Assembly: GCA_964427595.1 (NCBI GenBank)
Contig: CAYRUQ010000003.1
Span: 1,852 to 65,851 of the forward strand
Origin: an uncultured Clostridiaceae bacterium
GTDB lineage: Bacteria > Bacillota_I > Bacilli_A > RFN20 > CAG-288
Length of the DNA stretch: 64,000 nucleotides
Direction of reading: 5' to 3'
The notes beneath the pieces are model-generated. The model did no database searches, was not told where the DNA came from, and saw only the letters and a list, made by a program, of their open reading frames with translations. Below are positions 2,787 to 39,027 of this stretch, one piece after another; within the stretch, counting starts at the first letter, position 1; the number at the start of each line of letters is the position of its first letter. The translations under genes were made by a program, and so were the position numbers.

Positions 2787-3269
2787 CTACTGAAAGAACA
2801 CTTCGTTTTGTATATCCTTAAGAAGTTGAGAATATCTCGACTTTTTAAGCAATCCTAGGGTAGTGAAAATGATACCTAAAACTAGCATCACTCCACTGGC
2901 GACGAACATGATGATGGAGACATAAAACTCAGGGCTTGACATGACAAGCTGATGGTTATTGGCCGGCTTATGGGCAAGAACGAAGAAGAGGATAGCGAGT
3001 ATCAAGACGATGACGCCGATGACATTGAGACACATGCCACTTGAGAAGAAGTTTCTTCCTCTTTGAATCTCAGCATGAGAAGCAGCTGATAAAGACTTGA
3101 TATCAGCTTCATCAAGATGGTGATGAACAAGATATCCGCATCTCGGGCAGATGTACTGAATATCAGTCTCTAAATCGACCACCTGATCCTCTCCATATAA
3201 ACCGAGAGAGTTAGCCTTGCTTTCGATTTTATCGATGTTGAGATTCTTGCCGCAATGGCTGCAATACAT
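2787..3269 (-). CDS. Zinc-ribbon membrane protein (2x CxxC, then 2 TM helices)
   Basis: ORF 2787..3293, start moved to MYCSHCG (AAGGAGG 8 nt upstream). Motifs CSHCG...CPRCG, followed by two hydrophobic helices. Confidence 0.6.
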   Translation of the reverse strand: MYCSHCGKNLNIDKIESKANSLGLYGEDQVVDLETDIQYICPRCGYLVHHHLDEADIKSLSAASHAEIQRGRNFFSSGMCLNVIGVIVLILAILFFVLAHKPANNHQLVMSSPEFYVSIIMFVASGVMLVLGIIFTTLGLLKKSRYSQLLKDIQNEVFFQ

Positions 3270-3289
3270 GAACAAACCCTCCTTTGTTA

Positions 3290-4756
3290 TCAAGCTTCAA
3301 AAAGCTCAGTGGGTTGGAAGTCTTCACTGCTGCAGAGATTGATTTGATAAGAAATATTTCCAGTAGTGGAAGACTTGTGATAGGTGTAGATACCATAGTT
3401 GAGGGTGAAAGTATATCCTTTAAAATCATCAACCGTAGTGAGTCTAGTACCATTGAGAACACCGTTTGTTCCATCGTTTAGACGATACAAGAAAGGAACA
3501 TAAAGGCTATAATCGAGTCTATTTCCGTTGGTATCTTGTAAATAAAGGGTGAACTCAGTGGCATCATCGCTAGCATAACCTCCATAGACTTGCACCTCTT
3601 GGGTCAGTCTGACAGGAGTGTTGAGATACTCGTAAGTGGCATAGCCTAATTCGGTAGGTGCTAATTCAGCGATGTGAAGTTGAGTGAGCTCATCAGTGTT
3701 TTCACTAGCTTCAACTAAGACTTGAGCAGCGTTATCAGCGGTGGAATAAAGGTTGAAGTTACCATCAGTCAATTGGAAACCGAAATTCTCTGATTCTAAG
3801 GCGAGACCACAAGCTTCGATATAAGCGTTAGCGGTGGTGTATTTAGAGGAGATAGAACTCATACCGGTGTAGAAGTTGATACCAGCATAGGTATCAGTTT
3901 CAGCATCATATTGATTGATATATAAGATATTGTTGGAATAACCAGCGACAGTGCCGGTGATTCTGACTTTGACGTTGTCATAAGCATTCTCATAAGTGGG
4001 ATCTTCTAAAGTCTTGATGACTTCAGCTTGAAGCTCAGCGATAGAGACATCCTCATAATCACCATAGTTGTATAAAGGATCATCTTCACCAGAGAAGAGG
4101 TTAAGTTTATAAGCTTGAGCCTGAGCTTCAGCAGCATAGAAGATGTCAGCAAATTGAGGGACATAAGAGACGTTCTTGACATTAGACCAACCTTCTTGGA
4201 CGATCCAAAGGTTCAATAAAACGAGTTCAGAAGGATCTGCGTTTTCTTTCTCAGTGTTGATCCAAACTAAAGTGACATATCTCTCACCGGTGGTGTCATA
4301 AGAAGGAGCTTCATAAGTGTCTAAAGTCGTACCGGTGATGACGATCGTTCCAGATTCATCAGCAGCTTGTAATTTCTCTTTATTGAAGTTAGAAGCACCT
4401 CTTCCGTAAGGTTGAACAGAACCGGTGCTCTCAGGAGTATCGATACCATAGTAACGAGATTTGATTCTAGTGCCATCAGCAGCATAGAAGTGAGCGGTGT
4501 CACCATCGATACAAGTCGCTAAATCGACCTGTTCGATACCATCCTCTAAGAAGGTCTTTCCTTCATAATCGAGGTCGAGAGTGACCCCACCATCGTGGAC
4601 ATAGTCAACCCAGTCCGCTAAGGTGACACTGGAAGTGTCATCTTCAGTGACTGAACTATCGATAGAGGATGTTGTTGAAGAAGCGATAGCATTATCACAA
4701 CTAGCTAAAGTAAGAATCAAAGGAAGAGCGAATAACCATTGTAATTTCTTTCTCAT
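3290..4756 (-). CDS. Thermonuclease (staphylococcal nuclease, SNase)-like lipoprotein with a C-terminal beta-rich extension
   Basis: Lipobox LTLASC. SNase core motifs CIDGDTAHF...RYYGIDTPES...QPYGRGAS...GERYVTLVW. Start moved to MRKKLQW (GAGGAGG upstream). Confidence 0.8.
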   Translation of the reverse strand: MRKKLQWLFALPLILTLASCDNAIASSTTSSIDSSVTEDDTSSVTLADWVDYVHDGGVTLDLDYEGKTFLEDGIEQVDLATCIDGDTAHFYAADGTRIKSRYYGIDTPESTGSVQPYGRGASNFNKEKLQAADESGTIVITGTTLDTYEAPSYDTTGERYVTLVWINTEKENADPSELVLLNLWIVQEGWSNVKNVSYVPQFADIFYAAEAQAQAYKLNLFSGEDDPLYNYGDYEDVSIAELQAEVIKTLEDPTYENAYDNVKVRITGTVAGYSNNILYINQYDAETDTYAGINFYTGMSSISSKYTTANAYIEACGLALESENFGFQLTDGNFNLYSTADNAAQVLVEASENTDELTQLHIAELAPTELGYATYEYLNTPVRLTQEVQVYGGYASDDATEFTLYLQDTNGNRLDYSLYVPFLYRLNDGTNGVLNGTRLTTVDDFKGYTFTLNYGIYTYHKSSTTGNISYQINLCSSEDFQPTELFEA

Positions 4757-4767
4757 AAAATTCCTCC

Positions 4768-6228
4768 TCACAGATTATTCTTGGCTGTATTTTCAGCATT
4801 AGCGAAGGCGGTGTCGATATCAGAGAGTCCAGTGAAAACCTGGGCGATGATACCACCGACTGCATCTCTAGCATAAGCAGAGCCTTTGAAGACAGGAGTG
4901 TTGTAATAAGAGCCATCGATCTCTTCGACGACAACTTTAGCGACATCTCCGATCATCTCACCAGAGTTGGAAAACTCTTGGAATAAGGCAGTCTCGTAGC
5001 AAGATTCTCTGACTGCAACATAACCTTCAGATCCGTTAATACAAAGCTGAGTATTGACATCAGTCGAAGTTAAATACTTCAAGAATTTATAAGAATAAAG
5101 AGCCTTCATGCCGTCTGTATCATCAGCGGCATTCAAAACAGTGGCTGTTAATCCTTGAGTGACATAAACCGGGTTATCAGGATTGAAAGCCGGAACCGGG
5201 CAGATACCGACTTCAAATGCGCCACCAGAAGGATAGTTATAACCAGCACCACCTGATGAACCGATATCAAAGAGACATTTCTCAGCGGTGAAGTAACTAG
5301 AACCATAAACACCAGTGGTGTCTTTAGTGGTCAAGATCTTATCATCATGAGCCTGTTTTAACTCAGTGACCATCTCTTTAGCTTCATCATTATTGAAGAG
5401 AATGCTTCCGCTTCCATCATCGTTATAACCGATGAACGGGATATCATTTTGCATACAATTGGTGATGAAAAGGTTGGAATCAGAATCATAGAAGCAGGTG
5501 TAGAAATCACTGACGAGAGAGTGATCATAGCTTGAATCATAATAGATCCAATAACAGAAGTCCATGAACTCATCCCAAGAGAGAGAAGCTAACCAAGTAG
5601 CTGCTCTTGAGGTGGTGGTCAAGGAAGTGTTGTACTCCATCGCTAAAGGAAGGACGATTGAAGCGTTGTAATACATGACTTCAGTCGACTTCATCAAAGG
5701 AAGGGAATAGACGCCTTCAACAGCGTAGTTAGAACCTTCTTGATAGAAGACATCGACGAAGTCAGAGACATCACCATCTCCGATCCATTCTTCTTTACCA
5801 AAACCGACTTCATCATCATTGATATACTGGCTCAAATCGACGACGAAATCGCCTCTGTTAGTCTCTCTGGCGAGATACTCAGCGACATGGTCAGGATAAG
5901 CGATCGCTAATGAAGGTTGAGTGCCGGTTGTAAAAGAAGTGAGGATCTTAGTTAAGATATCATCATAGCTTCCTTGATACTGAAGCTCGATGTTGATCGT
6001 GATGCCGTCATTCTCTAAGACGAGCTTTTCAAATTCATCGATTCTGGTCTCTAATTCGGATTGAACTGTTTGACCAGAAGTGTGCCAAAAGTAGATCGTG
6101 TAATTATCGCTAGTGGCAGTGGTAGAAGAAGTGGAATTATCAAGAGAACTATTTCCACTTGTACAAGAAGAAAGCCAGCCTGAAAAAGATACGAGAAGCG
6201 CTAGGGCTAGGGCTTTGTTTGTTTTCAT
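4768..6228 (-). CDS. ABC transporter solute-binding lipoprotein (family-1 sugar type), paralog 2
   Basis: Lipobox LSSC plus Ser/Thr linker. Shares blocks with the 6295..7890 product (YPDHVAEY, VYSLPLMKSTE, SPVFKGSAYARD). Lies next to the MalFGK-type permease and ATPase genes. Confidence 0.8.
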   Translation of the reverse strand: MKTNKALALALLVSFSGWLSSCTSGNSSLDNSTSSTTATSDNYTIYFWHTSGQTVQSELETRIDEFEKLVLENDGITINIELQYQGSYDDILTKILTSFTTGTQPSLAIAYPDHVAEYLARETNRGDFVVDLSQYINDDEVGFGKEEWIGDGDVSDFVDVFYQEGSNYAVEGVYSLPLMKSTEVMYYNASIVLPLAMEYNTSLTTTSRAATWLASLSWDEFMDFCYWIYYDSSYDHSLVSDFYTCFYDSDSNLFITNCMQNDIPFIGYNDDGSGSILFNNDEAKEMVTELKQAHDDKILTTKDTTGVYGSSYFTAEKCLFDIGSSGGAGYNYPSGGAFEVGICPVPAFNPDNPVYVTQGLTATVLNAADDTDGMKALYSYKFLKYLTSTDVNTQLCINGSEGYVAVRESCYETALFQEFSNSGEMIGDVAKVVVEEIDGSYYNTPVFKGSAYARDAVGGIIAQVFTGLSDIDTAFANAENTAKNNL

Positions 6229-6294
6229 GTTTAACCTCCTTCAGACTGGCTTTGTCTAGTCTGTGATTAAAAGTTTAAGTTTTTAGTTGTTAGA

Positions 6295-7890
6295 TCAGAG
6301 AGCGTTCTTAGCGATGTTCTCGTAGTAATCAAATTGAGAATCAAGATTTGCTAAGAATGTAGCAGTATCAGTAGCTAAGGTCCAAGTCATCAAACCTTCG
6401 ACGGTATCTCTGACATCAGCAGAACCCTTGAAAACGGGGCTGGTGTAAACATAATCGTCGACGGTAGGTAAGTATTCCCAGTTTCTGGCTAAAAGCATAT
6501 CTTGGGTGCCAGTAGTCTGTTCTTCGGTATTAGAAGCAGCTTCATATTGAGCGGATTCATAGAAGGAGTTTCTGATGCCCATGTAACCAGTGTTGATAGA
6601 CCATTCGATGCAGTTAGTCTCATCGGTGAGAAGCTTCCAAACGACATAAGCAGCTTTTGCTCTGTTCTCATCGCCTTTATCTAAGACGCAGAAGGAAGGG
6701 CCTTGAGAGATCTGTTGATTGTAGTTGTCTTCAGTGATATTAGCACCAGTGATCTCTTGAGTACCGATCGTGGTATCTCCGACCTCAGCGTGAGGGATAG
6801 GAGCGACAGCGACATCAGGAGTATTGGTGCTCCAAAGATAAGTGACACCAGCGGTGGAAGAGACGGAGAATAAGCATTGGTTAGCGGTGAAGAGGTTAGA
6901 GGTATAGCTACCAGTGGTACCTTGAGAGACGATGTATCCGCTATTAGCCCACTCGTTGAACTTGGTCATCAAGTCCTTCATACCTTGGTTGTTGAAGAGG
7001 ATCTCACCAGTACCGGCTTCATTGATACCAGTGTAACCAAGACCATATTGCTGAGCTAAAGTGATGAAGAGGTTATCATCAGAGTCATAACCTAAGATGG
7101 CGGTATCACTCTGGCTGAAATCTAAGAGCTCAGTATCATTCTCGTTGTACCACATCAAAGCAGGGCAGAGTCTTTCGAAGAATTCTTCCCAGGTCAAGTC
7201 AGCGAAGTAAGCATCATTTAAAGGAAATCCATCATTGATACGATCGATACCAAGTGCGTCGCAAGCTGCATTTAAGTTGAGACCATTTAAGACGCCTCTG
7301 TTGTAATAAAGACCTTCAGTGGACTTGGAGAAAGGTAAGGAATAGACACCATCAACGACATACTCACTACCTTCATCAAGGAAGGCTTCGATATAGTCGG
7401 CCTCATCTTCATCAGTGAAACCGATAGTCTCATCGGTGATGTAGGGCTCTAAGTTGACAGCCTTACCAGCGTTGATGTAATCGGCGACATGATCAGGATA
7501 GCAATAAGCTAAATCAGGATAGTTGTTAGCAGAGAAACCTTGTAAGATGGCGTCATGAAGATCGGAATAACCCATGGAATTCTGGAAGGTGTTGGTGATC
7601 GTGATGTTAGGTTCGAGCTCTTGAACTCTTTCGAGCATCGTGTTGAAAGCGGTCTGGTTACTGGTACCGATCGTGGTCCAAATCTCGATTTCAACAGGTT
7701 CAGTGATGACGGGAGTGTACTCTCCATCAGAAGTAGTAGTAGATGTAGTAGTAGAAGAATCAGTAGAAGAAACAGCATCTCCGCCGGAACTACTATCACC
7801 AGCAGCGACTGATGAGCTGTCAGTTCCACTAGAGCAGCCAGCGAGAACTAAAACTGAGAGTAAGGGCAAAACTTTCCAAAAACTCTTCAT
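6295..7890 (-). CDS. ABC transporter solute-binding lipoprotein (family-1 sugar type), paralog 1
   Basis: Lipobox LAGC plus Ser/Thr linker. Blocks YPDHVADY, VYSLPFSKSTE, SPVFKGSADVRD. Confidence 0.8.
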   Translation of the reverse strand: MKSFWKVLPLLSVLVLAGCSSGTDSSSVAAGDSSSGGDAVSSTDSSTTTSTTTSDGEYTPVITEPVEIEIWTTIGTSNQTAFNTMLERVQELEPNITITNTFQNSMGYSDLHDAILQGFSANNYPDLAYCYPDHVADYINAGKAVNLEPYITDETIGFTDEDEADYIEAFLDEGSEYVVDGVYSLPFSKSTEGLYYNRGVLNGLNLNAACDALGIDRINDGFPLNDAYFADLTWEEFFERLCPALMWYNENDTELLDFSQSDTAILGYDSDDNLFITLAQQYGLGYTGINEAGTGEILFNNQGMKDLMTKFNEWANSGYIVSQGTTGSYTSNLFTANQCLFSVSSTAGVTYLWSTNTPDVAVAPIPHAEVGDTTIGTQEITGANITEDNYNQQISQGPSFCVLDKGDENRAKAAYVVWKLLTDETNCIEWSINTGYMGIRNSFYESAQYEAASNTEEQTTGTQDMLLARNWEYLPTVDDYVYTSPVFKGSADVRDTVEGLMTWTLATDTATFLANLDSQFDYYENIAKNAL

Positions 7891-7915
7891 TTGATTTCCT
7901 CCTTTTTGAAATCAA
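7891..7915 (-). promoter_or_regulatory. Perfect 8-bp hairpin that displays the SD of the first SBP gene in its loop
   Basis: The mRNA reads UUGAUUUC-AAAAAGGAG-GAAAUCAA-AUG. The stem arms are exact complements and the start codon directly follows the 3' arm. Confidence 0.35.
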
Positions 7916-7960
7916 TCTTTTTAATATGGTCAATCCCTAGTGAGGGTATCAACACCGAAA

Positions 7961-8941
7961 TCAGCCTTTGATGCCGGCTCTGCCGACACCTTTCATGATG
8001 TACTTTCTGAAGAAGATGAACAGTAAGAAGAGAGGGACGGTGACGATGACGGTAGCGGCCATCTGATAACCGTATGAGGTTCTACCAGCATCAGCATCAG
8101 TGAAGCTAGAGCTTCTAAGACCATTAGAGATGAGTCGGTATTCATCAACGGAAGTGACGAGGTTAGGCCAGACGTAAGAGTTCCAAGTTCCCATGAACTT
8201 CAAGATAGAGATGGAGATCAATGTAGGAGCAGCAAGAGGAACCATGACTCTCCATAAGAACGACCAGTCTGACTTACCATCGACTTTAGCAGCTAAGTAG
8301 AGCTCGTTAGGGATCTGTTTGAAGTTCTGTCTTAATAAGTAGATGTAGAAGACGGAGATGATGAACGGGACGATCATAGATAAGTAAGCGTCAAGTCTCG
8401 TCTGCGAAGATCCGATCCAACCGAAGCTAGCGACGGTGATGTAGTTGGTGATGACCATCATCTCGCCCGGGATCATCATCGTCATCAAGAAGATCATGAA
8501 GACAGCTTCACGACCTTTGAAACGAAGTCTAGCGAAGGCGAAGGCGGCTAAGATCGTCGTGATGAGAGTGCCGAGAGTCGAGAAGAAACCGACGACGACC
8601 GTGTTGACTAAGTAAGACAAAAAGTCAAACGACTGGAAGACATAGACGTAGTTAGACCACATGATGACAGTCGGATATAAAGTTTGTGTGACGCTTTCGA
8701 TTTCTGAGAAGCTCTTTAATGATGTGATGATCATCCAGTAGAAGGGGAAGATCATGATCAGAGCTAAGAATAAGACGACGACATAGAGAATGATCGTCGA
8801 GATGATGGAAGAGACTTGTTCTCTTTTTCTCATCGTTTCCACAGTCTGTCCTGAATCAGCTAAAGAGAGGGTGATATTTTGGTTGATTCTGATCTCAGAG
8901 AAATCTGTGTACTGGCTCTTTTTCAGTGATATGCCAAGCAT
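7961..8941 (-). CDS. ABC transporter permease (MalG/UgpE-like)
   Basis: Multi-TM protein with EAA-loop LAAKVDGKSDWSFLWRVMVPLAAP. The second ATG (8941) has better spacing to AAGGGGGTGA than the ORF-track start 8947. Confidence 0.85.
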   Translation of the reverse strand: MLGISLKKSQYTDFSEIRINQNITLSLADSGQTVETMRKREQVSSIISTIILYVVVLFLALIMIFPFYWMIITSLKSFSEIESVTQTLYPTVIMWSNYVYVFQSFDFLSYLVNTVVVGFFSTLGTLITTILAAFAFARLRFKGREAVFMIFLMTMMIPGEMMVITNYITVASFGWIGSSQTRLDAYLSMIVPFIISVFYIYLLRQNFKQIPNELYLAAKVDGKSDWSFLWRVMVPLAAPTLISISILKFMGTWNSYVWPNLVTSVDEYRLISNGLRSSSFTDADAGRTSYGYQMAATVIVTVPLFLLFIFFRKYIMKGVGRAGIKG

Positions 8942-8960
8942 TATCATTCACCCCCTTTCA

Positions 8961-10040
8961 TCAATAGTAGACCCTCTTCTTAGAGACGGCTAGTTGAATG
9001 ACAGTGAAGACGAGGATGACAGCGAAGAGGAAGACGGCGGCTGCGGCCGCATAAGAGGTGTGGCTGGTCATGTTATCGTAGATGTAGTAAACGATCGTGT
9101 ACATGTTATAAGAACCGCTTAAGGTACCAGGGTTGTTGAACAAGGCGACGATCGATGAGTATTCCTTAAACGCACCGATGAATGAGGTGACGACGATATA
9201 TAAGATCTGTGGTGACATCAGAGGAACAGTGATCCTCCATAAGGTCTTTCTCTTGGAAGCACCATCGACTTTAGCAGCGTTGTAGTACTGAGCATCGATA
9301 CCTTGTAAACCGGAGAGAAAGACTAAAATCTTAAATGGGATATCAGACCAGATGATATAGATACAAAGAGGGATCATAGCTACATATTGATCAGCACCGG
9401 TGATCCAAACCGTATCTAAACCGAAGAGGTAGTTGATGATACCATTGTCATCAAACATGACGGAGAAGACCATACCGATAGCGATCGTATTAGTGACATA
9501 AGGTAAGAAGAAGACTGTTTGTAAGAATTTCTTAAACCAAGTAAGTGAGTTTAAAGCGACTGATATCAACAAAGCGATAGTAGTGGAGAGAGGGACAGTG
9601 ACAAAGACGATGATGAAGGTGTTAGGGATAGCATATTGAACGAAGTTTTGTTCATAACCGCCACCGGATGTCATCGTGATACCGAAGATGATTCCGAAGT
9701 TATCTAAGGTGAAACCGGAAGAAGTGAAGGTGATCTGATCGTAATCTTTCATGAAGGCGATGACTATCGTATTGATCAAAGGATAGAGAAGGAAGATGAC
9801 GAGAAGAATCAAAACCGGTCCTAAATAGAGCCAAGCCTTCCAGTTGTTATTAGAAGCAGTATCCTGAATACCAGTGATCTTATATGGTTTCTTCTTGCTA
9901 GAAGAAGGATCAACGAGTCTGATGATCGTATTACTTTCACTAGAAAAACCATCAACAATATCCGGACGCTCTTCGAAGTAATCGTTAGCAGCGGTGAGAC
10001 TCACCTGCTCACGAAGGACTTGTTCCTGTTCCATTATCAC
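8961..10040 (-). CDS. ABC transporter permease (MalF/UgpA-like)
   Basis: Multi-TM protein with EAA-loop YNAAKVDGASKRKTLWRITVPLMSP. GTG start. Confidence 0.85.
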   Translation of the reverse strand: MIMEQEQVLREQVSLTAANDYFEERPDIVDGFSSESNTIIRLVDPSSSKKKPYKITGIQDTASNNNWKAWLYLGPVLILLVIFLLYPLINTIVIAFMKDYDQITFTSSGFTLDNFGIIFGITMTSGGGYEQNFVQYAIPNTFIIVFVTVPLSTTIALLISVALNSLTWFKKFLQTVFFLPYVTNTIAIGMVFSVMFDDNGIINYLFGLDTVWITGADQYVAMIPLCIYIIWSDIPFKILVFLSGLQGIDAQYYNAAKVDGASKRKTLWRITVPLMSPQILYIVVTSFIGAFKEYSSIVALFNNPGTLSGSYNMYTIVYYIYDNMTSHTSYAAAAAVFLFAVILVFTVIQLAVSKKRVYY

Positions 10041-10044
10041 GTCC

Positions 10045-11976
10045 TCAATCTATATAGATTCTCTGCTCAGTCTCGTGATTGAAGATGAAGAATTTATCCT
10101 CTTTCAAGCTTAATTGAACTCTGCCATGAGAGACTTGCTGATCAGATGAGACGACGATCTTGAAGGAAGTCTTAGTGCACTCCTTATGAGTGGCGACGAC
10201 AAACATATCACGTCCTAAGACCTGAAGCATGTCAACATCAGCATGGAAACCGAGTTGTTGAGTATCAGCAAGAGCGACATTCATACCTTCAGGACGGATA
10301 GCGACATAGACTTCTTGATCATCGATCTGTTTATTCAATTCATAAACTTTCTCATCACCGATATATAAGGCATTACCAGTGATACGGCCATTGAAGACAT
10401 TGATAGGCGGAGTTCCTAAGAACTGAGCGACGAAGAGGTTAGCCGGTTGATTGTAGACATTTTGAGGAGAATCGATCTGTTGTTCTTCACCGAGCTTCAT
10501 AACGACGATCTTATCGGAGATAGACATAGCTTCTTCCTGATCGTGAGTGACGAAGACGGTGGTGATACCGGTATCTCTTTGAATTCTCTTGATCTCTTCT
10601 CTAGTTTGAAGTCTCAAACGAGCATCCAAGTTAGAGAGAGGTTCATCAAGTAATAAAACTTTAGGTTTCTTGACTAAGGCTCTAGCGATAGCGACACGCT
10701 GTTGTTGACCACCGGAGAGCTGAGACGGTTTTCTTTCAAGATATTCTTCAACCTGAACGAGTTTAGCAGTCTCTTCAACGATCTCTTTACGCTCTTCTTT
10801 GGTTAAGAGTCTATGAGTGATAGCAGTCTTTGCATCGGTGACGATGTTCTCTAAAAGAAGTTCTTCTTTTAAATACTCAACCGCTTCTCTAGCAGCTTCT
10901 TCATTGATCTTCTTTAAGATGATGAAGAAACGGCGTTGACCATTTTCATAATAAAGTTTCAGATCGGAATAGTGATATCTTCTCTTTCTGAGAGTGAGCT
11001 TGAGATCATTGGTGAACTCAGCATCAACGACATCACTGACACCAAAGGAAGTCTCAGTGAATTCGACTGCGTCACAGACGGCTCTCTTGAAGTCTTCTAA
11101 TTGAATAGTTAAAACACCTCTGATACGAGCGACGATCTCATAACAGACTTTAGCTTTGAAGATGGTGATGGATTCGACATGTCCGTACTCAGACATAGCC
11201 GCTCTTTCAGCTTTGATGTACTCATCGATATGGTCAGTGGTGAAACTTAAAGGAAGATGACCGATGAAGTTGATGGTTGATTTTTCTTTCTCACTGACAC
11301 GAGTGACATCAGCTCTGATCTTGATATCATATAAAGCTTCACTAGCTTGTTCTTCTTCATACTCTTCACTATCAGGATGGATGATATGTTCTCTGAAGTT
11401 ATCTAAGAAGAGATCTTTGTTCTCAGCCGAGACAGAGAGAAGGTCAATCTTTAAGTTTAAAACTTCTCCGTCAGTTTCTTCTTCGATATCAGAAGAGACG
11501 ATTTTATAATTCTTTTTCTTCAAGCCTAAGCGACCGATCAAGGATTTGACACTAGCTAAGATTCCATCGACATCATCCTCTTCCTTCATCTTGTAAGTGT
11601 AGTTGATATGGTAGTTGTAGAAAGTGACGAGAGGAACTTCAACCTTGAGGTTGGTGAGTGGGAATTCAATGTTCTTATAAATTGTCATGTGAGGATAGAG
11701 AGCATAATTTTGGAAGACAAGACCGATACCTCTCTTCTCGGGAGGGAGGTTAGTGACTTCTTGATCACCAAACCACACTTCACCAGAAGTAGGTTTTAAA
11801 AGTCCAGAAATCATGTATAAGGTAGTGGATTTACCACAACCAGAAGGTCCGAGAAGACCGACTAATTTTCCATCTGGGACCTCGAAGTCTAAGTTATTGA
11901 CAGCGATGGTATCACGAATGTTCTTCTTAGAGTCACCGGGGAATATTTTGGTGAGATTCTTCAGTTTGATTTCCAT
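10045..11976 (-). CDS. ABC transporter ATP-binding protein (MalK/UgpC type) with an insertion of about 280 aa in the helical subdomain
   Basis: Walker [11 protein letters not shown]-loop [12 protein letters not shown], signature [15 protein letters not shown], Walker [13 protein letters not shown]-loop VTHDQEEA, and a C-terminal TOBE-like tail. Residues ~113-390 separate the Q-loop from the signature motif. Confidence 0.9.
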
Positions 11977-11995: not shown

Positions 11996-13534
11996 TTAAT
12001 TAGTTCCGTCGTCTTCTACATCATTATCTAATTGGAGCTTCTCTTTCATTCTTCTTTCTAGGTAATTCTTGATGGCTAGATAGAAGAATTTAGCGAAGTA
12101 TCCGATGAAGATGATTCCTATGATCGATAGACATACGATGTAGTTATCTAATGGGTTATAAGTAGATAGTGCACTTGCGATGAAACCGACACGATAGACG
12201 ATTATCAAGATATCCATCAACAGCACTGTCACCGCTAAATATCCGAGGATATTAGTCTTGAAGAATCTCTTCGGTTGAACTCTCTTAAATTCATCGTTCT
12301 TATATTTGTTAGAGAAATAGAAGTAGGCGACGATGATTCCAGCGATATAAACAGCAGAGAACACGAAGAGAATGATTAATAAGTTAAATAAAACATTGTG
12401 GAAGAAAACATTAGAGAAGTCATCATCTTCAACTTCAAAGTAGATGGAGCCAAATCTAGTCGTATAGATAGAAGAATTAAGCTCAGCTAAAGTGTCATTA
12501 TTGATGATGCTGATCTTGAAAGAACTACTGCACAATGAGACGCCAGTTAAACCATCTAAATTGATGTTTTCAACTAACATATGAACGACGGTATCACCTT
12601 CATCAACCGTGAAGGAAGTGGTCTGAGCATAGTCATCATAAACATAGACAGTTTCCATCGAATCGTCTTCATAAGCTAAAAGCAGATAAGCAGAGTTCAT
12701 ATTAGTGAAGGTGAATTGATAGGAATAAGTACCTCTTGCTAAATAGCCTTGATTAGTCTCATAAGCACTGGAGCTAGACATCTGCTCTGTATAAAGGTCG
12801 ACAGTGTTGTTATGAACCGTAAATGTAAAAGAAACATATCTACCAAGTGTGGACACGTAGTCCATACTAGCGGATATGTATTGTGTCAAATCAATATTAG
12901 TAGAGCCAGCTGTAGAGTAGCTGAAGTAATCTTCAGAAGAATCAATGTAATAAGATTGCTCGCCAGGATAATAGTTGGTGCCATCAGTAGCGATTTCAAA
13001 AACGTTATAGAAAACAAGAGAGCCATCGATGATAGAATCGCCGGGATTGATGAAGAGATCGATAGTGACAGAAATATAAGTGTCGAAATGATCTCCTAAG
13101 CCCTGATAAGCGATATTACCAGTGCTAGACTTTTCAATCTCGGACTCTCTTTGAATCTGCTCTCCATCATCAGTAGTGACGTAATAGCTGACGGTAAAAG
13201 GAAGATAAAGACCATCATCTTCAGATCCATAATATCCCAACGTAAAATCACCACTACTTGAGCCGCATCTAAATGTTATTTGATATGACTGACAGGTGTC
13301 ACTATGGTTTTGACTAGTGACAGTGGCAGTAAAATTAGGAGCTATTTCAGTGATATCTAAGGCATCCTCTTGGACCCCTTTAATATCAGAAGAATCAATC
13401 AACTGTCGTTGCCCAGAAACCTCAAGACGAGTGCCGAAATCTGAGCAATAATTACTAATGGGCACAAAACAAATCAGCAACAGAGACATAATCAGAAGGC
13501 GAACTGAAGACAGCAGACGCTTTTTTCGTTTCAT
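11996..13534 (-). CDS. Membrane protein, function unknown (signal peptide, ~370 aa exodomain, 4 C-terminal TM helices)
   Basis: 512-aa ORF with GAGGA upstream of the ATG. N-terminal hydrophobic signal. Stop lies 19 nt before the ATPase start. Confidence 0.6.
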
Positions 13535-13941
13535 TGACTAGTCCTCAACACATTGATTATATAAATTATGCACCAAACAATAGACATCTCCTTGATATCT
13601 ACTCACTTCATTATAAATGTTTTCAAGTAAATGCAAAAGTTCTTTTCTTTAGGAAGCCCTTTCATAAAAAATTATCTAAAATCGATTAAAATCGGCGGTT
13701 TTTATCATTTTTCCTTCAGTTGATTAAAACATTGTTCAATTTTAGTGAGACTTCAATGTTAAAACCTTTTCTTCTCTAACCTTATTTATATATAGTGATA
13801 CTTCTAATCAATTTTAATAAACTTGACAAAACCTCTCTGCTATCTGATCATTTTTACTATTTTGTTTGCTTATGTATATAACGCAACAAACAAGATAGAA
13901 TGTCAATTTCAAATTATTAGTAGACATCTTTTCTCTATGGC

Positions 13942-14461
13942 TTATATCTGATCTTTAGGAAGAGTTTGAACATTTAAAACTTGCTTGAAATGAGTGAAAA
14001 TATCTTCGACTATTTGATTTGCTTGTTCGACAGTTATAAATCCTTTAAGAAAATGAGACATACAGATAACAAGTGACGCACAAGTGATTCTTTTATGTGT
14101 GACTAATGTTTTATAGCTGATCTCAAAATAGCTTTCTAAATATCTGCTTATCCATCTCATATACTCTTCAATTTCGCCAGTAACTATCTGCTGCCGATGA
14201 ACTTTTTGAAAGAGAAAAAGCCTATAGACTCTCTCTTCAAAGCTGATATCTGTTTTATGTCTTTCAACATAATCATTCAGAAGTTTATTGATGGAAGAAA
14301 AATAAAAATCTTTCTTTGACTCATAATGTTTGAAAAAGTGGTCTTTGAAATACCAACTTCTTTAATCAAGTCATTAATGGTGCATTCCCTAAAGTAAGTG
14401 ATTTGATAAAAGACTGATAAAGCCTTTCATCAATATTGGATACATGTTTACTTTTCCCCAT
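13942..14461 (-). pseudogene. TetR-family regulator disrupted by two single-nt frameshifts
   Basis: Three frames join into one TetR-like protein: MGKSKHVSNIDERLYQSFIKSLT / RECTINDLIKEVGISKTTF / FKHYESKKDFYFSS...MRWISRY... The HTH is split. The second shift sits in a T5 run where T6 would restore the frame. Confidence 0.7.
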
Positions 14462-14519
14462 AAAGTAAATTCCTTTGTCTAATACAGAAATTATACTTTA
14501 GAAAATGGAGGAGTAGAGC

Positions 14520-14867
14520 ATGAATAAAACGAGTTTTAGAATTAAACAACTCTCTGATTTGACAGGCATTCCTGTCGAAAAACTCTATCAATATGATGCT
14601 GGAGAAGATGTTTTAATTACACAAGAAAAAGAAGAGTTACACAAGGCCAAAAAAGAACTCAATATCAAAAAAGTCAATGTCGCTCTGGTTCTTGTTTTCT
14701 TTTTGAGTTGTGTGCTTATCCTTATAGGAATGCTTTGTTTTATAGCAATCGGCCTAATCACTTACACTAATTTAGTATTATTCAATCTCTCTTATCTAGC
14801 AATAGTAGGAATCGTGGTAGCTGTAGCTAGTATCATCGCTTATTTAATAATCAACATTAAAAAATAG
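14520..14867 (+). CDS. Small membrane protein with an N-terminal HTH-like segment
   Basis: GGAGGAG SD. N-terminus IKQLSDLTGIPVEKLYQYD, then a charged helix, then two TM helices. Transcribed divergently from the TetR pseudogene. Confidence 0.5.
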   Translation: MNKTSFRIKQLSDLTGIPVEKLYQYDAGEDVLITQEKEELHKAKKELNIKKVNVALVLVFFLSCVLILIGMLCFIAIGLITYTNLVLFNLSYLAIVGIVVAVASIIAYLIINIKK

Positions 14868-14890: not shown

Positions 14891-15940
14891 TTATTTATCT
14901 TCGTCTAAAGATATATTTCTAAATTGAATCGGAGTTTTATTAATCTTGATGTTATCAATCTCAGCTTCTTCTTTACTGAGATAAATCTTATCTTTAGAAA
15001 CATCAACCTGTTGAGTGCCAGTCATGTATTGAGCAAAATCCTGTTTCTTTTTGGTGACGACCATGACAGTGATAGAAAGAAGAAGCGGAACAGCTAAGGC
15101 TAAGAAAGAAAGCCAGATTTCCAAGACTATTTGAAAGACGGCGTATAACAAAAACTTCTTAGTCTTAACAGCCAACAAGTCACTATTAATTAGACCGATT
15201 TTATAAGCTCTCATACCGAGAGTCTGTCTAGTTCTTCTAAAAATCAAAGGAGGAACTAAATAAACGAGAAGAGAGCTTAAAACGACAGCGACTGGTAGCT
15301 CAATAAGCAAAACAACATAATTGAGATAATTAGTATAGTCATAATAATTAGGGAAATAACTTATAAGAAATCCTCTTAAATAACTATCGATAAAAGGAAC
15401 ATAGATATACTCGGTATAATCGGAGTATCCACCTCTGAATGATGAGTTTTTAACTATTTCTCCATCTTCGATGACGAAAAGATACTCCTCACTGACAGTG
15501 ACATCGAGTCTGTATTCATCATAAATTGCAGACATATAATCGTAGTTCTCTTGAGACATCTCTCCACTTTCAGTAAGTTCTAATGCGTAAGAAAAGAATT
15601 GATTGATAACCTTCTCAAGATTATTCATGATCTGGCTGGCTGAATAAGTATCAGTATCGTTGTAATACTCAGTAGCTTCTTCTAATCCATCATCAGTCTC
15701 AACATAAACACCGCTAGAGACCATCATCTCTTGTAAGCCAGTATAGACTTCTTGATAATAGTCGCTAGATTGAACAATCGCTCTAGCCGAGATGAAAAAG
15801 AGAATTCCTACAAGAGCAAACAAAAGGAGGTCGATGATCTTGGCAAAGACCTTTTTATATGTCTTAGCTCTGGTATAACGGACATTAAGCTCAACATTTT
15901 GAGCTTTCGGTCTCACTTCATAAATATCTTGTTCAGCCAT
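14891..15940 (-). CDS. RDD-family membrane protein (paralog B) with a large acidic/Tyr-rich extracytoplasmic insert
   Basis: Motifs KKVFAKIIDLLLFALVG (TM1), RRTRQTLGMRAYKIGLI, and C-terminal QDFAQYMTGTQQV. Its ATG overlaps the upstream stop (TGATG). Confidence 0.65.
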   Translation of the reverse strand: MAEQDIYEVRPKAQNVELNVRYTRAKTYKKVFAKIIDLLLFALVGILFFISARAIVQSSDYYQEVYTGLQEMMVSSGVYVETDDGLEEATEYYNDTDTYSASQIMNNLEKVINQFFSYALELTESGEMSQENYDYMSAIYDEYRLDVTVSEEYLFVIEDGEIVKNSSFRGGYSDYTEYIYVPFIDSYLRGFLISYFPNYYDYTNYLNYVVLLIELPVAVVLSSLLVYLVPPLIFRRTRQTLGMRAYKIGLINSDLLAVKTKKFLLYAVFQIVLEIWLSFLALAVPLLLSITVMVVTKKKQDFAQYMTGTQQVDVSKDKIYLSKEEAEIDNIKINKTPIQFRNISLDEDK

Positions 15941-17064
15941 CAGATCATATATCCTTTACTGGCATAAATCTTCTCTAAATCATCGGTCGAAATCAAGACG
16001 GTCTTGGAGATAAAATCTCCAAGCGTCCTATGATAGTGATTACAGAATATGAAGATAAACGAAGCTAGAACTAAAACAAGTGAAATCAAAGAGAGATAGA
16101 AAAGATAAGGTAGACTGAAGACTGTTGCGATATCGATATACATGACGGGAACTAACATAATCAGAGGTAAACACATGACCATCTGATAGAACGAATATAA
16201 GATTCGATCTCTCCTCTTTAAAATCTTGAAGTTTTCCATCACTACTCTCTCTCTTCTTAAAGCCATCATCGGGATAGTCTTTCCTCTTCTAGAGACTACT
16301 GGTATGACTAAAAAGTAGATGACAGAACCTAAGAAGTAAGAGATATAAGTACAATAGACTGATATCATGTTCATCTGATAAGTCAGTTCATCATTTTGAT
16401 CATCAAGGACTCGATACTGATATAAAGGCGACTCAGAAGTTATCTTCTCAGAATCTAATATCACATACATCATCTCAGAATAGATGTTAGCGAAGAAGCT
16501 TTGGATGAAATAGTTATAGGCGCTTTGAGCAGTCGAAGAAAGAGAGTCATTCTCATCTAACAGAGGACTGAAACTAGTTTTATAAGAATCACTTAAAACG
16601 ATGCTCTCCCCAGTGTAATCAAAGAATCCATAAGAATCATATTCTTGAAGTAAGTTCTTAACTGCATCTACATCCTCTCCCAAGTAATCAATATAGAAAA
16701 GAGAAAAATAATCAGGTTCATAAGTTTCTTCTAAAAAACCTATCAAATAAGCATTTGCACTAAATTCAAGAGAAGTGGTTATGTTGTATTTATCAGCGCT
16801 ATCATCATTTTCATCGTAATCGAGAAGATAGTTATCATAAAGGATATCTAGTCTTTCGACTTGATTTTCATACAGTTTTTCTTGATAACTGTCATATCCA
16901 CCGACTATCTTACCGATAGGATAGACAGCGACTGAAAAAAGAATTAAAGCTACAAAAAAGTTGAGGAAGAGATCGGCTAAGTAAACTAGCATTCTCTTTC
17001 CTTTGGTAAGCGGTGATATATCTAGATATTTCGGATTGACTTGATCGATGACTTCTTCGCTCAT
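15940..17064 (-). CDS. RDD-family membrane protein (paralog A) with a large acidic/Tyr-rich extracytoplasmic insert
   Basis: Motifs GKRMLVYLADLFLNF (TM1), SRRGKTIPMMALRRERV, and C-terminal HRTLGDFISKTVLIS. Its ATG overlaps the SIR2-like gene stop (ATGA at 17061-17064). Confidence 0.65.
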   Translation of the reverse strand: MSEEVIDQVNPKYLDISPLTKGKRMLVYLADLFLNFFVALILFSVAVYPIGKIVGGYDSYQEKLYENQVERLDILYDNYLLDYDENDDSADKYNITTSLEFSANAYLIGFLEETYEPDYFSLFYIDYLGEDVDAVKNLLQEYDSYGFFDYTGESIVLSDSYKTSFSPLLDENDSLSSTAQSAYNYFIQSFFANIYSEMMYVILDSEKITSESPLYQYRVLDDQNDELTYQMNMISVYCTYISYFLGSVIYFLVIPVVSRRGKTIPMMALRRERVVMENFKILKRRDRILYSFYQMVMCLPLIMLVPVMYIDIATVFSLPYLFYLSLISLVLVLASFIFIFCNHYHRTLGDFISKTVLISTDDLEKIYASKGYMI

Positions 17065-18353
17065 AAAGCCTCCAGATAATCAGCTATCTCAGAATATTCA
17101 TCAACCCAGATGACGATCAAATCAAAAGTGAAGAAATAAGATGTTAAATCTCTGAAAGTCGTCTCTGAGAATCCTTTTTTCTTTTTTAAGAAGATGAAGT
17201 TGAACTTTAAAGAATTAACAGCTAGTTCAAGAAGTCTCTTCATGTCAGGATCAGTTAAAGAGATACCGATAAAAAGACAGGTGTTGAACTTGAAGTCATG
17301 AAGCTGTTTAGCGTTATTCCATGAGTAAGGATTGTTATAAAGATAGTAGTATTCACTTTCATTGAAGATTAAGGACTCCGTGTAATTCTTCTCATCATAT
17401 TTATCGTAAGGAAGAAGCCCATGGACATGAAAGATATCCGCTTTCGCCTTCATATTGACGAATGAAGAATCATTATAAGTGGTGTTATAAGAGATTCCTC
17501 TCTTCTTAAGAAGATATTCTAAATTGGTATCGTAATTGTAAGTGATGACGGAAGTATGTCTGTGTTTCTTGATGTAGTTAACACAGTGTGAAAGAGTCGA
17601 GTCTTGGTCATCAAAACTTTTAGCCTGTGAGAACTTATAAAGTTCTCTATTAAGAGATTTAAACGAATCAAATCCGGTCGTCTCTAAAACCATCGGATCT
17701 GTAAATAATTCTTTTCCAACATAAGTCTTGATCTCAGAAGCATAGCGATAATCGCCTTTATAAAACTCGTTGTTCAAAGCTTCGATAAGACCAGGCCAAG
17801 ACTTAGCTCCATAATCTTCATTGATACCAGCACCGATGACAAGATCAGTATGAATTTGATATGTGTAAAGCTTTAAAACCCACAATAAGAAAGAAGGTGC
17901 TGAGGTGTTTAAACCGACAAGTTCAGGATCGCTGATGAAGTAATAAAGAAGGCTATCAGTGATATCATCTTCGGCCTTAGAAAGTTTATAAGAGATCTCT
18001 CTTCCTTCTATCTTTCCTAAGGAGACGAAAGAGGCTCCATCAAAATAGATATTTAAAGCTTTCGAAGGAGTGTCATATTCTTTCTCTTCGATATTCTTAA
18101 CTTTGATGATGTTGACATTTCCCATCTCATCAATCACTTCATCACCATCGTTGATGATGCGACAAGAGTACTTGTGATAGTGGTTGTGTTTAGAAGTGAT
18201 GATAGCTTTGAAATTACAACCAACTCCAAATTGGAAACCGAAAGATCTTAAAACGATAGCATCATAAGAAACATCAGCAAGATAGTACAGAAAAAGGAGA
18301 ACTAATAAGCTTCTCTTTTCAAAAATATATGCTTCTCTATCTGTTTTGCCCAT
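17061..18353 (-). CDS. SIR2_2/ThsA-like (putative NADase) protein with an unknown N-terminal domain of about 170 aa
   Basis: Ordered motifs LVIGAGINEDYGAKSWPGL, VITYNYDTNLE (Asn277), IFHVHG (His315), LFIGISLTDPDMKRLL. Residue numbers follow the ORF-track TTG start at 18365. The ATG at 18353 is preferred as the start. Confidence 0.7.
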   Translation of the reverse strand: MGKTDREAYIFEKRSLLVLLFLYYLADVSYDAIVLRSFGFQFGVGCNFKAIITSKHNHYHKYSCRIINDGDEVIDEMGNVNIIKVKNIEEKEYDTPSKALNIYFDGASFVSLGKIEGREISYKLSKAEDDITDSLLYYFISDPELVGLNTSAPSFLLWVLKLYTYQIHTDLVIGAGINEDYGAKSWPGLIEALNNEFYKGDYRYASEIKTYVGKELFTDPMVLETTGFDSFKSLNRELYKFSQAKSFDDQDSTLSHCVNYIKKHRHTSVITYNYDTNLEYLLKKRGISYNTTYNDSSFVNMKAKADIFHVHGLLPYDKYDEKNYTESLIFNESEYYYLYNNPYSWNNAKQLHDFKFNTCLFIGISLTDPDMKRLLELAVNSLKFNFIFLKKKKGFSETTFRDLTSYFFTFDLIVIWVDEYSEIADYLEAL

Positions 18354-18370
18354 CGTTTGAACCAAAGAAT

Positions 18371-18379
18371 ATTATAACA
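18371..18379 (-). promoter_or_regulatory. Extended -10 element (TGTTATAAT) for the SIR2-like operon
   Basis: TGnTATAAT lies 17 nt upstream of the ATG at 18353. There is no SD, which implies a very short leader. Confidence 0.4.
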
Positions 18380-18458
18380 TCTGTTAAAAACACTATCAGT
18401 ACGTTTTACTGACGATGATAAAACTATCTTGAGAATAAGAATCTCTTATTTCTTAGAT

Positions 18459-19349
18459 TCAATCAATCGAAACTATCTGATATTCTCTACTTCCTAAACC
18501 GTGCTCATTAGCAGCTTCAACCGTTCTGATTCCATGGCGTGAATTCATTCTTTCAATCAAGGCTTTCTTACCAGAATCAGGAGAATTGATGACAGCATCA
18601 TAACAAGCTTGATCGATAGCGACCGGATCTAAAGAAGCGAAGATACCGATATCAGCCATCTCCGGTTCAGCCGGGTTAGAATCACAATCACAATCGACTG
18701 ATAAACGATTAGCGACGTTGATATAAATCATGTTCTTAGCACCTTTATATGAGATGATTGCTTTACAAGCATCGGCCATCGATTCTAAGAAATCGTCTTG
18801 CTCAGTCTTTAAAGTCCAGCAATCTTTAGAAGAGATAGTCTTACCTGCTGAATGGATATAAGCTTTTCCATGAGTGGAGGCAATACCGATAGCGACATTC
18901 TTCAAAGCACCACCAAAACCACCCATCACATGTCCTTTGAAGTGAGAGAGAACAAGAATCTGATCATACTCATCAAAATTCTGACCGATGATATCTTTAT
19001 CGAGATGGAAGCCGTTTTCAACCGGTATCTCTTTCTCACCAAACTCGTCCATGATATCGACTTTAGCGATCTTAGTAAAACCATGGTTCTCGATAGTTTT
19101 CCAGTGGTCAATAGTCGCTTCTCGTGAACCACCATAAGCGGTGTTACATTCTAAGATGGTTCCTTTCACTTCATCGATTAAATCCTTGATAAACTCAGGA
19201 TGAAGATAGTTATTACCACCTTGTTCACCAGTGGAAAGCTTGACACCGACTTTTCCTTTTAAAGGATTATCACCGACTAGTTTCTTATAAATCTTAACTA
19301 ATGAATCAGAAGAGATTTCTTTGGTGAAATAAACGATTGAAGCAGCCAT
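18459..19349 (-). CDS. DUF362-like protein
   Basis: 296 aa, preceded by GGAGGA SD. Blocks KVGVKLSTGE and GGFGGALKNVAIG resemble DUF362 as I remember it. Confidence 0.55.
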   Translation of the reverse strand: MAASIVYFTKEISSDSLVKIYKKLVGDNPLKGKVGVKLSTGEQGGNNYLHPEFIKDLIDEVKGTILECNTAYGGSREATIDHWKTIENHGFTKIAKVDIMDEFGEKEIPVENGFHLDKDIIGQNFDEYDQILVLSHFKGHVMGGFGGALKNVAIGIASTHGKAYIHSAGKTISSKDCWTLKTEQDDFLESMADACKAIISYKGAKNMIYINVANRLSVDCDCDSNPAEPEMADIGIFASLDPVAIDQACYDAVINSPDSGKKALIERMNSRHGIRTVEAANEHGLGSREYQIVSID

Positions 19350-19402: not shown

Positions 19403-19430
19403 AAAAACCGCCCGGAGAGCAATCCGGGCG
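19403..19430 (-). terminator. Rho-independent terminator after tuf
   Basis: CGCCCGGA-TTGCTC-TCCGGGCG is a perfect 8-bp stem, followed by G+TTTTT. Confidence 0.75.
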
Positions 19431-19460
19431 ATTTAATTGAGCTAAGCTTTAAAACTATGA

Positions 19461-38501: not shown

Positions 38502-38938
38502 TTTCTTAGCTTAGAAAAACACTCTTTCATCAGATCAAGAAATCTATCATCGTGAAGTCTTGTCACTTCTAAAACATCATCGACAAAGGTGTGGTAATAA
38601 GAAAGCCCACCTTTTTTTTCATCATCAAGAAAATAATAAAGACTTTTGATGTTAGCTTTTAAGATAGCTCCTAAACACATCAGACAAGGTTCTAAAGTGA
38701 CGATTAAAACTGAATTCTTAAGATATTTAACTTTCTTTTCTTTCAAAACCTGTTCAATCAATAAGATCTCTGCGTGAGCGAGCGGATCAGATTCTTCTTC
38801 AACTTTATTTGATGAATAATACTTTTGACCATCTTCAGTCAAAAGACAGCAAGAAACAGGAATCTCTCCTCTTTCTAATGCATCTTTTGCTCTTTGATAA
38901 AGTTGATCACTTATCTCTTGTAAAGTCTTTTTTGTCAT
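38498..38938 (-). CDS. tadA: tRNA-specific adenosine deaminase
   Basis: HAEILLIE and LEPCLMCLGAI. ATG at 38938. The ORF-track GTG at 38956 lies inside the SRP RNA. Confidence 0.85.
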   Translation of the reverse strand: MTKKTLQEISDQLYQRAKDALERGEIPVSCCLLTEDGQKYYSSNKVEEESDPLAHAEILLIEQVLKEKKVKYLKNSVLIVTLEPCLMCLGAILKANIKSLYYFLDDEKKGGLSYYHTFVDDVLEVTRLHDDRFLDLMKECFSKLRN

Positions 38939-38944
38939 AAAGAA

Positions 38945-39027
<83 letters not shown>

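Follow-up and report, generated by a model that had tools for sequence, protein, structure and literature searches.

We have studied a cluster of three genes in a stretch of 64,000 nucleotides (the window) from an uncultured Clostridiaceae bacterium of GTDB lineage RFN20; CAG-288 (contig CAYRUQ010000003.1). The first (gene 1) encodes a SIR2-like protein and is followed on the same strand by two genes for membrane proteins of the RDD family (genes 2 and 3). An initial annotation, made from the letters of the DNA, took the trio for an accessory islet encoding a candidate defense or abortive-infection operon, with the membrane proteins as a sensor or anchor pair driving NAD+ depletion. The comparisons presented here give good support to the view that gene 1 is a SIR2 protein of the ThsA/DSR2 type with an intact Asn/His active site and an orphan N-terminal domain. 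It is equally well supported that gene 1 is present in single copy in a wall-less lineage, where it is inherited vertically and evolves slowly, under strong purifying selection, and that the RDD pair is independent of it. The features are collected in Table 1.

The three genes overlap. The junction between SIR2 and gene 2, CTGGAGGCTTTATGAGCG, is an ATGA overlap, with a GGAGG Shine-Dalgarno sequence lying within the 3′ end of SIR2, and the junction between genes 2 and 3, ATGATCTGATGGCT, is a TGATG overlap. A distribution scan was made with one genome per GTDB species, from which 80 loci were fetched (individual loci are given as L numbers). Both junctions are overlapping or abutting in 48 loci of canonical order (47 species loci and the window), confirming the translational coupling that had been proposed. 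The ATG at 18353 is the start of gene 1 in all orthologs (MxKxxRE...), and the residues numbered Asn277 and His315 in the initial annotation, which counted 434 aa, are Asn273 and His311 of the 430-aa protein. The separate extended -10 element that was ascribed to the trio is also seen, as a consensus match. The succession of tuf terminator, promoter-like site and SIR2 found in the window is the same in L006, and in L003 the terminator is likewise there.

Table 1. Positions of the three genes, their domains and the surrounding features in the window.
Feature	Position	Strand	Remarks
Gene 1 (SIR2)	18353..17061	-	430 aa from ATG 18353; 434 aa from TTG 18365
N-terminal domain of gene 1, aa 1-168	17850..18353	-	Modeled as a long helix, then a seven-strand beta domain; private to the gene 1 family
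SIR2_2 catalytic domain of gene 1, aa 169-430	17061..17849	-	GAGIN, TYNYD (Asn273), HVHG (His311), IGISLTDPD
Gene 2, RDD-family membrane protein	17064..15940	-	374 aa, 4 predicted transmembrane (TM) segments
Gene 3, RDD-family paralog	15940..14891	-	349 aa
Promoter-like site, extended -10 (CTGATA-17-TG-TATAAT)	18371..18399	-	17 nt 5′ of the SIR2 ATG; consensus match only
Strong terminator-like hairpin 3′ of tuf	19405..19434	-	End of str operon, upstream of the block
mem512, membrane protein	11996..13534	-	358-aa acidic Tyr-rich ectodomain, C-terminal TM segments; after the RDD pair in many relatives
Conserved block	2787..11976	-	ATP-binding cassette (ABC) ATPase, two BPD_transp_1 permeases, two substrate-binding protein (SBP) lipoproteins, SNase nuclease, small membrane protein
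UgpC-like ABC ATPase	10045-11976	-	Split by ~270-aa insert; NCBIfam matches aa ~3-113, ~386-640
SNase-type nuclease	3290-4771	-	
Small membrane protein	2787-3293	-	
DUF362 gene	18459-19349	-	162 bits; between tuf terminator and SIR2 promoter-like site
Filler between gene 3 and mem512, window-specific	13940..14867	both	1.35-kb gap; ~200 bp in relatives
Frameshifted TetR remnant	13940-14460	-	Frameshift-repaired translation: TetR_N 22 bits, E 1.4e-4
115-aa open reading frame (ORF)	14520-14867	+	Weak helix-turn-helix/MerR matches; TM segments

The Pfam SIR2_2 profile (PF13289) matches residues 272-388 of gene 1 with 49.4 bits (cutoff 24.5). Four elements show no variation, or almost none, among 25 aligned orthologs: GAGIN, which is an NAD loop of the GAGxS type, TYNYDTNLEY, HVHGLLP and IGxSLxDP. 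Motifs of the TYNYD and HVHG type are present in 80 of the 80 locus ORFs and in all 120 of 120 database matches. PADLOC returned weak ThsA/SIR2 domain matches to gene 1 (E 1.6e-5), and in its ThsA model profile positions 106-272 align with residues 273-432. The Asn and His initially put forward as catalytic are thereby placed in the catalytic region of ThsA. The program called no system, and gave no matches for genes 2 and 3 or mem512; nor was any NCBIfam model matched by these or by SIR2.

The structure of the gene 1 protein was predicted with AlphaFold2 (predicted local distance difference test, pLDDT, 79.7; predicted template modeling score, pTM, 0.82). On comparison by Foldseek the model matched the SIR2 domains of ThsA (8btp, E 6e-10), DSR2 (E ~1e-9), KomC/HAM-SIR2 and human FAM118B over ~290 columns, with E values between 6e-10 and 1e-7 for ThsA, DSR2 and KomC. 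There was no canonical deacetylase sirtuin among the 50 matches listed. A profile of the family alignment searched against PDB sequences found nothing at E ≤ 0.01 (best, ThsA 8wc0 with E 0.62), and for the catalytic alignment we therefore depend on Pfam, PADLOC and Foldseek. Together the Pfam score, the conserved motifs and the structural matches to ThsA, DSR2 and KomC uphold the SIR2_2/ThsA-type fold that had been read from its ordered motifs. The protein would be expected to hydrolyze NAD+.

The N-terminal domain has no such relatives. Modeled alone, its 168 aa gave pLDDT 86.5 and pTM 0.85, and Foldseek found no significant counterpart of the predicted fold, the best E being 0.095 in PDB and 0.036 in BFVD; profile searching returned only fragments of the gene 1 family. 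The domain is nonetheless strongly conserved, with a mean column identity of 62% across orthologs, and in 25 orthologs the conservation of the N-terminal ~165 aa equals that of the catalytic domain. Truncated versions of gene 1 proved to be artefacts, arising from a split call on a contig of 4x coverage and from a cut at a contig end. The helix spanning residues 13-36 (KRSLLVLLFLYYLADVSYDAIVL) has moderate hydrophobicity (Kyte-Doolittle 1.82 over 19 aa) and is modeled with pLDDT 93-95; it might be buried in the core or serve for association with a membrane. We suggest that the N-terminal domain may autoinhibit the SIR2 activity and be relieved by some trigger, and that the gene 1 protein might make contact with the RDD proteins.

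More than 200 full-length homologs of gene 1 were found, all of 430-436 aa and with identities of 55-74%, and the family falls into a single 50%-identity cluster. When 1.84 billion cluster representatives were searched with the profile, one full-length representative scored 748 bits and the next only 163 bits. This 163-bit outgroup consists of proteins of ~450 aa that resemble the gene 1 family mainly in the SIR2 part, and that match the PADLOC models for ThsA, Dsr1, LmuA and PDC more strongly than gene 1 does. The gene for its best-scoring member stands alone, in unrelated surroundings. In view of the drop in bit score and the outgroup matches, the gene 1 family is most likely a tight, isolated clade descended from stand-alone SIR2 genes of the defense type.

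The SIR2 protein is encoded in at least 103 species. Record names at its loci include Ca. Enterosoma, UBA7642, Clostridium sp. CAG:288, Ca. Enteromonas and Ca. Onthovivens; Enterosoma (UBA7642) belongs to RFN20/CAG-288 and Enteromonas (UBA733) to RFN20/CAG-826 (Gilroy et al., 2021). Members of CAG-288 as well as of CAG-826 have been predicted to be without peptidoglycan and non-sporulating. Pairwise identities of SIR2 follow those of tuf (Pearson 0.81) and fusA (0.72; Mantel p = 0.001). Median rates of non-synonymous substitution (dN) put SIR2 at 0.066, the ABC ATPase at 0.11 and the RDD pair at 0.20-0.23; the synonymous rate dS is saturated (>1) in most pairs, making dN/dS rough, and we have therefore relied on the ranks of dN. 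No close homolog of SIR2 was present in phage and plasmid collections, which gave distant partial matches only. A number of the loci come from metagenome-assembled genomes with titles such as Alistipes, Bacteroides, Prevotella, Roseburia and Parasutterella (L006, L011, L017, L023-L026, L035, L055, L062, L067, L077, L080). Where tuf and fusA are included in these loci they are 79-88% identical to those of the window, so that the titles appear to be mislabeled or mis-binned.

Nor is the composition of the cluster that of a foreign element. The AT-richness noted initially holds relative to the neighbors with which it was compared, since the GC content of the trio is 0.35 vs 0.50 for tuf and 0.41 for the ABC ATPase. 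It does not hold relative to the genes of the window as a whole (mean 0.393 ± 0.042), from which the trio lies within 1 sd; the GC outliers are tuf and fusA. At third codon positions the trio has 0.34-0.37, compared with a mean of 0.385 ± 0.075. With this ordinary composition, vertical inheritance (r = 0.81 with tuf), conserved synteny with the str operon and housekeeping neighbors, the idea of an accessory islet is not sustained.

Genes 2 and 3 are paralogs, as judged by hhalign comparison of alignments of 29 orthologs each (99.8%, E 2e-27). Conserved across the orthologs of both are an R/K...D motif at TM1, an R-x-x-T-x-G loop and a C-terminal acidic motif. In the window the candidates for the RDD signature positions (Arg, Asp, Asp) are GKR...LAD at TM1 and ...TLGDF near the C-terminus of gene 2, and an invariant Asp37 with the R-x-x-T-x-G loop in gene 3. 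The window copies themselves do not reach the cutoff of the Pfam RDD profile (PF06271), with 19.6 bits vs 24.1 for gene 3 and no match for gene 2. At E ≤ 0.01 the profile matches 27 of 29 gene-3 orthologs (best E 8.8e-15) and 21 of 29 gene-2 orthologs (best 4.1e-8), and some orthologs carry precomputed PF06271 matches and the NCBI name 'RDD family protein'. The shared RDD architecture that was initially assigned is thus supported by the paralogy and the matches of orthologs, with the window copies falling below the cutoff. At residues ~300-306 of gene 3 the window has Gln (KQDFAQYM) where nearly all orthologs have Asp or Glu before a conserved Tyr. This Gln at the last acidic signature position may contribute to the sub-threshold score.

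The TM1-TM2 loop is 188 aa long in gene 2 (Asp + Glu 37, Tyr 24) and 151 aa in gene 3 (Asp + Glu 29, Tyr 23), and in both the loop that follows this acidic, Tyr-rich insert is rich in Lys and Arg. By hydropathy and the positive-inside rule we predict that the termini and the R-x-x-T-x-G loop are cytoplasmic and the acidic insert is outside. The pair evolves fast, with a median pairwise identity of 0.20-0.25 and hypervariable ectodomains. Pairwise identities of gene 2 and gene 3 co-vary across species with r = 0.97, which fits a heterodimer of the two, and this is probably the form that the pair takes. An acidic Tyr-rich ectodomain of 150-190 aa between TM1 and TM2, and the tandem arrangement, set genes 2 and 3 apart from the RDD family at large (PF06271), for which the one biochemical report known to us concerns a Na+(Li+,K+)/H+ antiporter of Halobacillus. 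In L059, L061 and L070 there is a second RDD-like pair at about 250-2450 (-), 5.5 kb upstream of SIR2 and on the opposite strand (358 and 376 aa in L059). RDD pairs have therefore been duplicated in some genomes.

Is the RDD pair a dedicated partner of SIR2? Gene order was analyzed by tblastn and all-against-all clustering of ORFs, and is usually rpsL-rpsG-fusA-tuf-[0-6 kb]-SIR2-RDD-RDD-(mem512)-ABC-perm-perm-SBP..., where perm denotes a permease gene. The RDD pair lies directly 3′ of SIR2 in 50 of the 74 loci having a downstream gene, and an ABC importer lies within 7 genes of SIR2 in 51 of 80 loci, with SNase nuclease genes accompanying that block in several. SIR2-RDD-RDD is kept intact in the L049-L074 group, where the position of ABC is permuted (ABC-perm-perm-SBP-sm130-SIR2-RDD-RDD). 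One contig set has ecfA-ecfA-ecfT-truA-208aa-SIR2-205aa-RDDlike-RDD-mem521-ABC-perm-perm-SBP-SBP-SNase. Together with the coupling kept in 48 loci and the hypervariable ectodomains, the adjacency and the joint movement of the trio are what would be expected if the initial proposal of a three-part defense or abortive-infection islet, with the RDD pair as dedicated membrane sensor or anchor of the SIR2 NADase, were correct.

Yet the parts also occur separately. In about 23 of the 80 loci SIR2 has neither an RDD pair nor an ABC importer nearby; by eye, its neighbors there look like malQ, a MiaB/RimO-like radical SAM gene, guaA, HAD, psuG/pfkB-like genes, RNase R and TldD/PmbA, and precomputed Pfam matches on one such contig agree with these calls. 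L020 and L025 have SIR2-ABC... without the RDD pair. In L063 the order is SIR2-ABC-RDD-RDD-perm-perm-SBP, placing the pair between the ABC ATPase and the two permease genes and so tying it to the transporter rather than to SIR2; L060 shares SIR2-ABC-RDD-RDD, with no permease genes following within the stretch covered. An RDD-RDD-ABC operon, headed by the RDD pair, is divergent from SIR2 in L022 and L028.

The converse was seen in a metagenome scan seeded with the mem512 alignment, which gave 72 loci, 36 of them with at least 4.2 kb upstream of mem512. The RDD pair is directly upstream of mem512 in 33 of these 36 and SIR2 is present in 12. A profile hidden Markov model (HMM) of the SIR2 family matches 13 of the 72 loci, each with >600 bits, and gives no match at E ≤ 0.01 in the remainder, in agreement with tblastn. 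The RDD pair is without SIR2 in the locus in 24 cases, and dereplication at 95% nucleotide identity left 8 SIR2-positive and 18 SIR2-negative lineages. The SIR2-negative order is fusA-tuf-(~375-aa lipoprotein)-RDD-RDD-mem512-ABC, and in L157 tuf is followed by the RDD pair after 128 bp. The fusA genes of these loci are 57-60% identical to that of the window, compared with ≥66% for all tuf-linked SIR2-positive loci. Because the SIR2-less loci keep the pair, we regard it as a component of a post-tuf surface/transport block, independent of SIR2.

The ~375-aa lipoprotein gene 5′ of the RDD pair was observed in L110, L129, L141, L156 and L160. Its product matches Y_phosphatase3 with 95-97 bits in L129, L156 and L160, the three tested, so that a secreted phosphatase adjoins Tyr-rich acidic ectodomains in SIR2-less relatives. 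The tuf-RDD gap of L135 holds a lipoprotein nuclease with SNase and LTD domains.

The RDD pair occupies the same post-tuf site with no SIR2 at the locus in 18 dereplicated lineages, as a housekeeping pair joined independently by SIR2 would, and the claim of a dedicated sensor pair is not supported. This double dissociation (with ~23 species having SIR2 but no nearby RDD genes), the RDD pair lying inside an ABC operon (L060, L063) or heading one divergently (L022, L028), and the ordinary composition, vertical inheritance, conserved synteny and want of mobile or defense neighbors together make the three-part islet improbable.

Alternatively, SIR2 and the RDD pair might be functionally unrelated, with SIR2 having come to occupy, or having been kept in, the promoter-proximal slot of an RDD operon by a neutral fusion. 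This concerns the coupling only, and is compatible with either view of the role of SIR2 discussed below. The slot 5′ of the RDD pair is indeed variable, holding SIR2 here and the Y_phosphatase3 lipoprotein in another clade, and being empty in L157 (128-bp gap). Extra sequence between SIR2 and gene 2 is also tolerated, as a 205-aa ORF in L085 and gaps of 0.7-1 kb in L038 and L126. However, the start/stop overlaps persist across lineages in which SIR2 is only 55-60% identical, and the trio moves as a unit. Persistent overlap and joint movement are usually a sign of co-function, and we consider a neutral fusion rather unlikely. The arrangement is best read as a housekeeping surface/transport block to which, in this clade, SIR2 has been joined at the front.

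The rest of that block comprises mem512 and the importer and nuclease genes listed in Table 1. One of the two SBP lipoproteins has a weaker, below-cutoff match to Lipoprotein_X (MG185/MG260 family). The block resembles the lipoprotein/nuclease/UgpC-like ABC block of the Mycoplasma MG185-MG189 / MPN133-136 type, with which it shares a UgpC-like ATPase with a large insert, two permeases, SBP lipoproteins and an SNase nuclease. We know of no SIR2 or RDD pair in the Mycoplasma block. By analogy, the content suggests a function in scavenging nucleic-acid or phospho-ester nutrients. mem512 was considered as a third RDD paralog and rejected (hhalign 2.8%).

What, then, might be the function of a SIR2 protein with this history? 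The reading that we tentatively adopt, and think quite possible, is that of a lineage-fixed, regulated NAD+-depletion switch of defense-type ancestry. SIR2 would have been fixed once in an ancestor and then passed on vertically under strong purifying selection. The gene 1 protein would be cytoplasmic, its N-terminal domain holding the NADase off until a conserved cellular cue is received; cleavage of NAD+ and growth arrest would then follow, so that the protein would serve as an inbuilt switch for abortive infection or stress. The protein would, in this clade, be made together with the RDD pair, and might be stationed or regulated at the membrane. The pair would not be an obligatory partner, belonging mainly to the adjoining surface/nutrient-scavenging block, with its fast-evolving acidic ectodomains exposed on the wall-less surface.

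Several observations weigh against such a switch. Vertical retention across an order or family, and a putative sensor domain so highly conserved (mean column identity 62%), are unusual for immune effectors; retention and a conserved N-terminal domain fit a housekeeping enzyme equally well. There are no defense or mobile genes near SIR2 in any context examined, and PADLOC found weak ThsA-domain matches with no system. The core-gene status is moreover deduced from 17-kb loci rather than from whole genomes.

SIR2 could instead have a non-suicidal, physiological NAD+-dependent role in these reduced genomes, for example in NAD+ turnover or salvage, or in ADP-ribosylation or deacylation of a conserved target, possibly tied to the adjoining nucleotide/phospho-ester scavenging block. 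As expected for such a role, SIR2 is single-copy, vertical and slower-evolving than the ABC ATPase. It is always found amid housekeeping genes (tuf; ecfA-ecfA-ecfT-truA; malQ/miaB-like, guaA and psuG/pfkB-like), and its N-terminal domain is conserved like the catalytic one. The ABC importer within 7 genes in 51 of 80 loci, the SNase genes in several and the Y_phosphatase3 lipoprotein in the slot 5′ of the RDD pair in SIR2-less relatives point the same way, although this scavenging theme is guilt by association. Against such a role stand the toxicity to be expected of an unregulated NADase and the lack of any canonical deacetylase sirtuin among the 50 Foldseek matches listed; to our knowledge, moreover, no bacterial SIR2_2/ThsA-type protein has a housekeeping role. 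We regard a housekeeping function as possible but somewhat doubtful. A more specific proposal is that a 'suicide' SIR2 of the ThsA/DSR type has been domesticated as a core non-immune enzyme, its N-terminal domain reading an endogenous signal, and that it works with the RDD pair, the ABC importer and the nuclease. We think this unlikely, though not strongly so.

How does gene 1 compare with known systems? With ThsA, the SIR2-SLOG NADase of type I Thoeris, it shares the SIR2_2 catalytic fold, the PADLOC ThsA match on the catalytic region and the conserved TxNYD Asn and HxHG His. It differs in that its SIR2 domain is C-terminal, behind the 168-aa orphan domain, in a sequence identity of ~16%, and in being vertically inherited where ThsA is island-borne. 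Pfam found SIR2_2 only in gene 1, with no SLOG or Macro domain, and there is no TIR ThsB among the neighbors, nor did PADLOC match any of the partners. Like DSR2 and DSR1, gene 1 would combine a SIR2 NADase-type protein with an attached non-catalytic domain in one polypeptide. DSR1 and DSR2 reach ~1000 aa, carry SIR2 at the N-terminus and bind phage tail tube protein through a large C-terminal sensor; gene 1 has 430 aa, the opposite domain order and a small, highly conserved N-terminal domain. KomC/HAM-SIR2 of Kongming is a structural match, but there is no KomA or KomB partner at the SIR2 locus. HerA, short pAgo with APAZ, and STAND NTPases are likewise absent from the genes flanking the trio in the window and from the 80 related loci, in agreement with the initial remark that none of the known SIR2 partners (ThsB/TIR, HerA, pAgo, STAND) is nearby.

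Human FAM118B is the remaining structural match considered. FAM118A/B are described as vertebrate-specific sirtuins resembling antiphage sirtuins, and offer a precedent for a defense-type SIR2 fixed in a lineage. We found no published description of an association of SIR2 with RDD proteins, of RDD proteins with defense, or of SIR2 with RFN20/RF39. What is new here is a protein of the SIR2_2 NADase type whose N-terminal domain is new, whose gene behaves, unusually, like a core gene, and which has a new operon partner that is not obligate.

The solved bacterial relatives that we found (ThsA, DSR2 and KomC) are all phage-defense NADases, and such genes are commonly on horizontally transferred islands. 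By contrast the SIR2 gene studied here is core-like, single-copy and beside tuf in two families of reduced-genome, wall-less gut bacteria. Domestication or permanent fixation of a 'suicide' NADase in reduced genomes would, if confirmed, be noteworthy. Should the protein still act as an immune switch, it is unusually stable and has to respond to a conserved cue. Otherwise, this class of effector is open to repurposing in bacteria, as seems to have happened to FAM118 in vertebrates, and domestication would give the first bacterial housekeeping role for this SIR2 clade. There is also a caution for screens based on guilt by association: a coupled operon of SIR2 and a membrane pair resembled a new defense system, and the pair is a housekeeping neighbor.

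The remaining features of the locus are variable. The DUF362 gene that separates tuf from SIR2 in the window has no tblastn match in any of the 80 related loci, and in other species the gap holds varied, unrelated genes or is empty; it is therefore a tolerated insertion site. The gap was considered as a defense hotspot and rejected, the N-termini of the inserted proteins resembling ABC exporter ATPases, lipoproteins, an AAA ATPase and a Fur-like regulator. An Rfam scan of the window found no riboswitch or other RNA family near SIR2 or the ABC operons; the only matches at the gathering score are a small signal recognition particle RNA at 38935-39031 (-) and one tRNA at 49419-49491 (-). On the other side of the trio, the decayed TetR gene reported initially is plausible, given the TetR_N match of its repaired translation.

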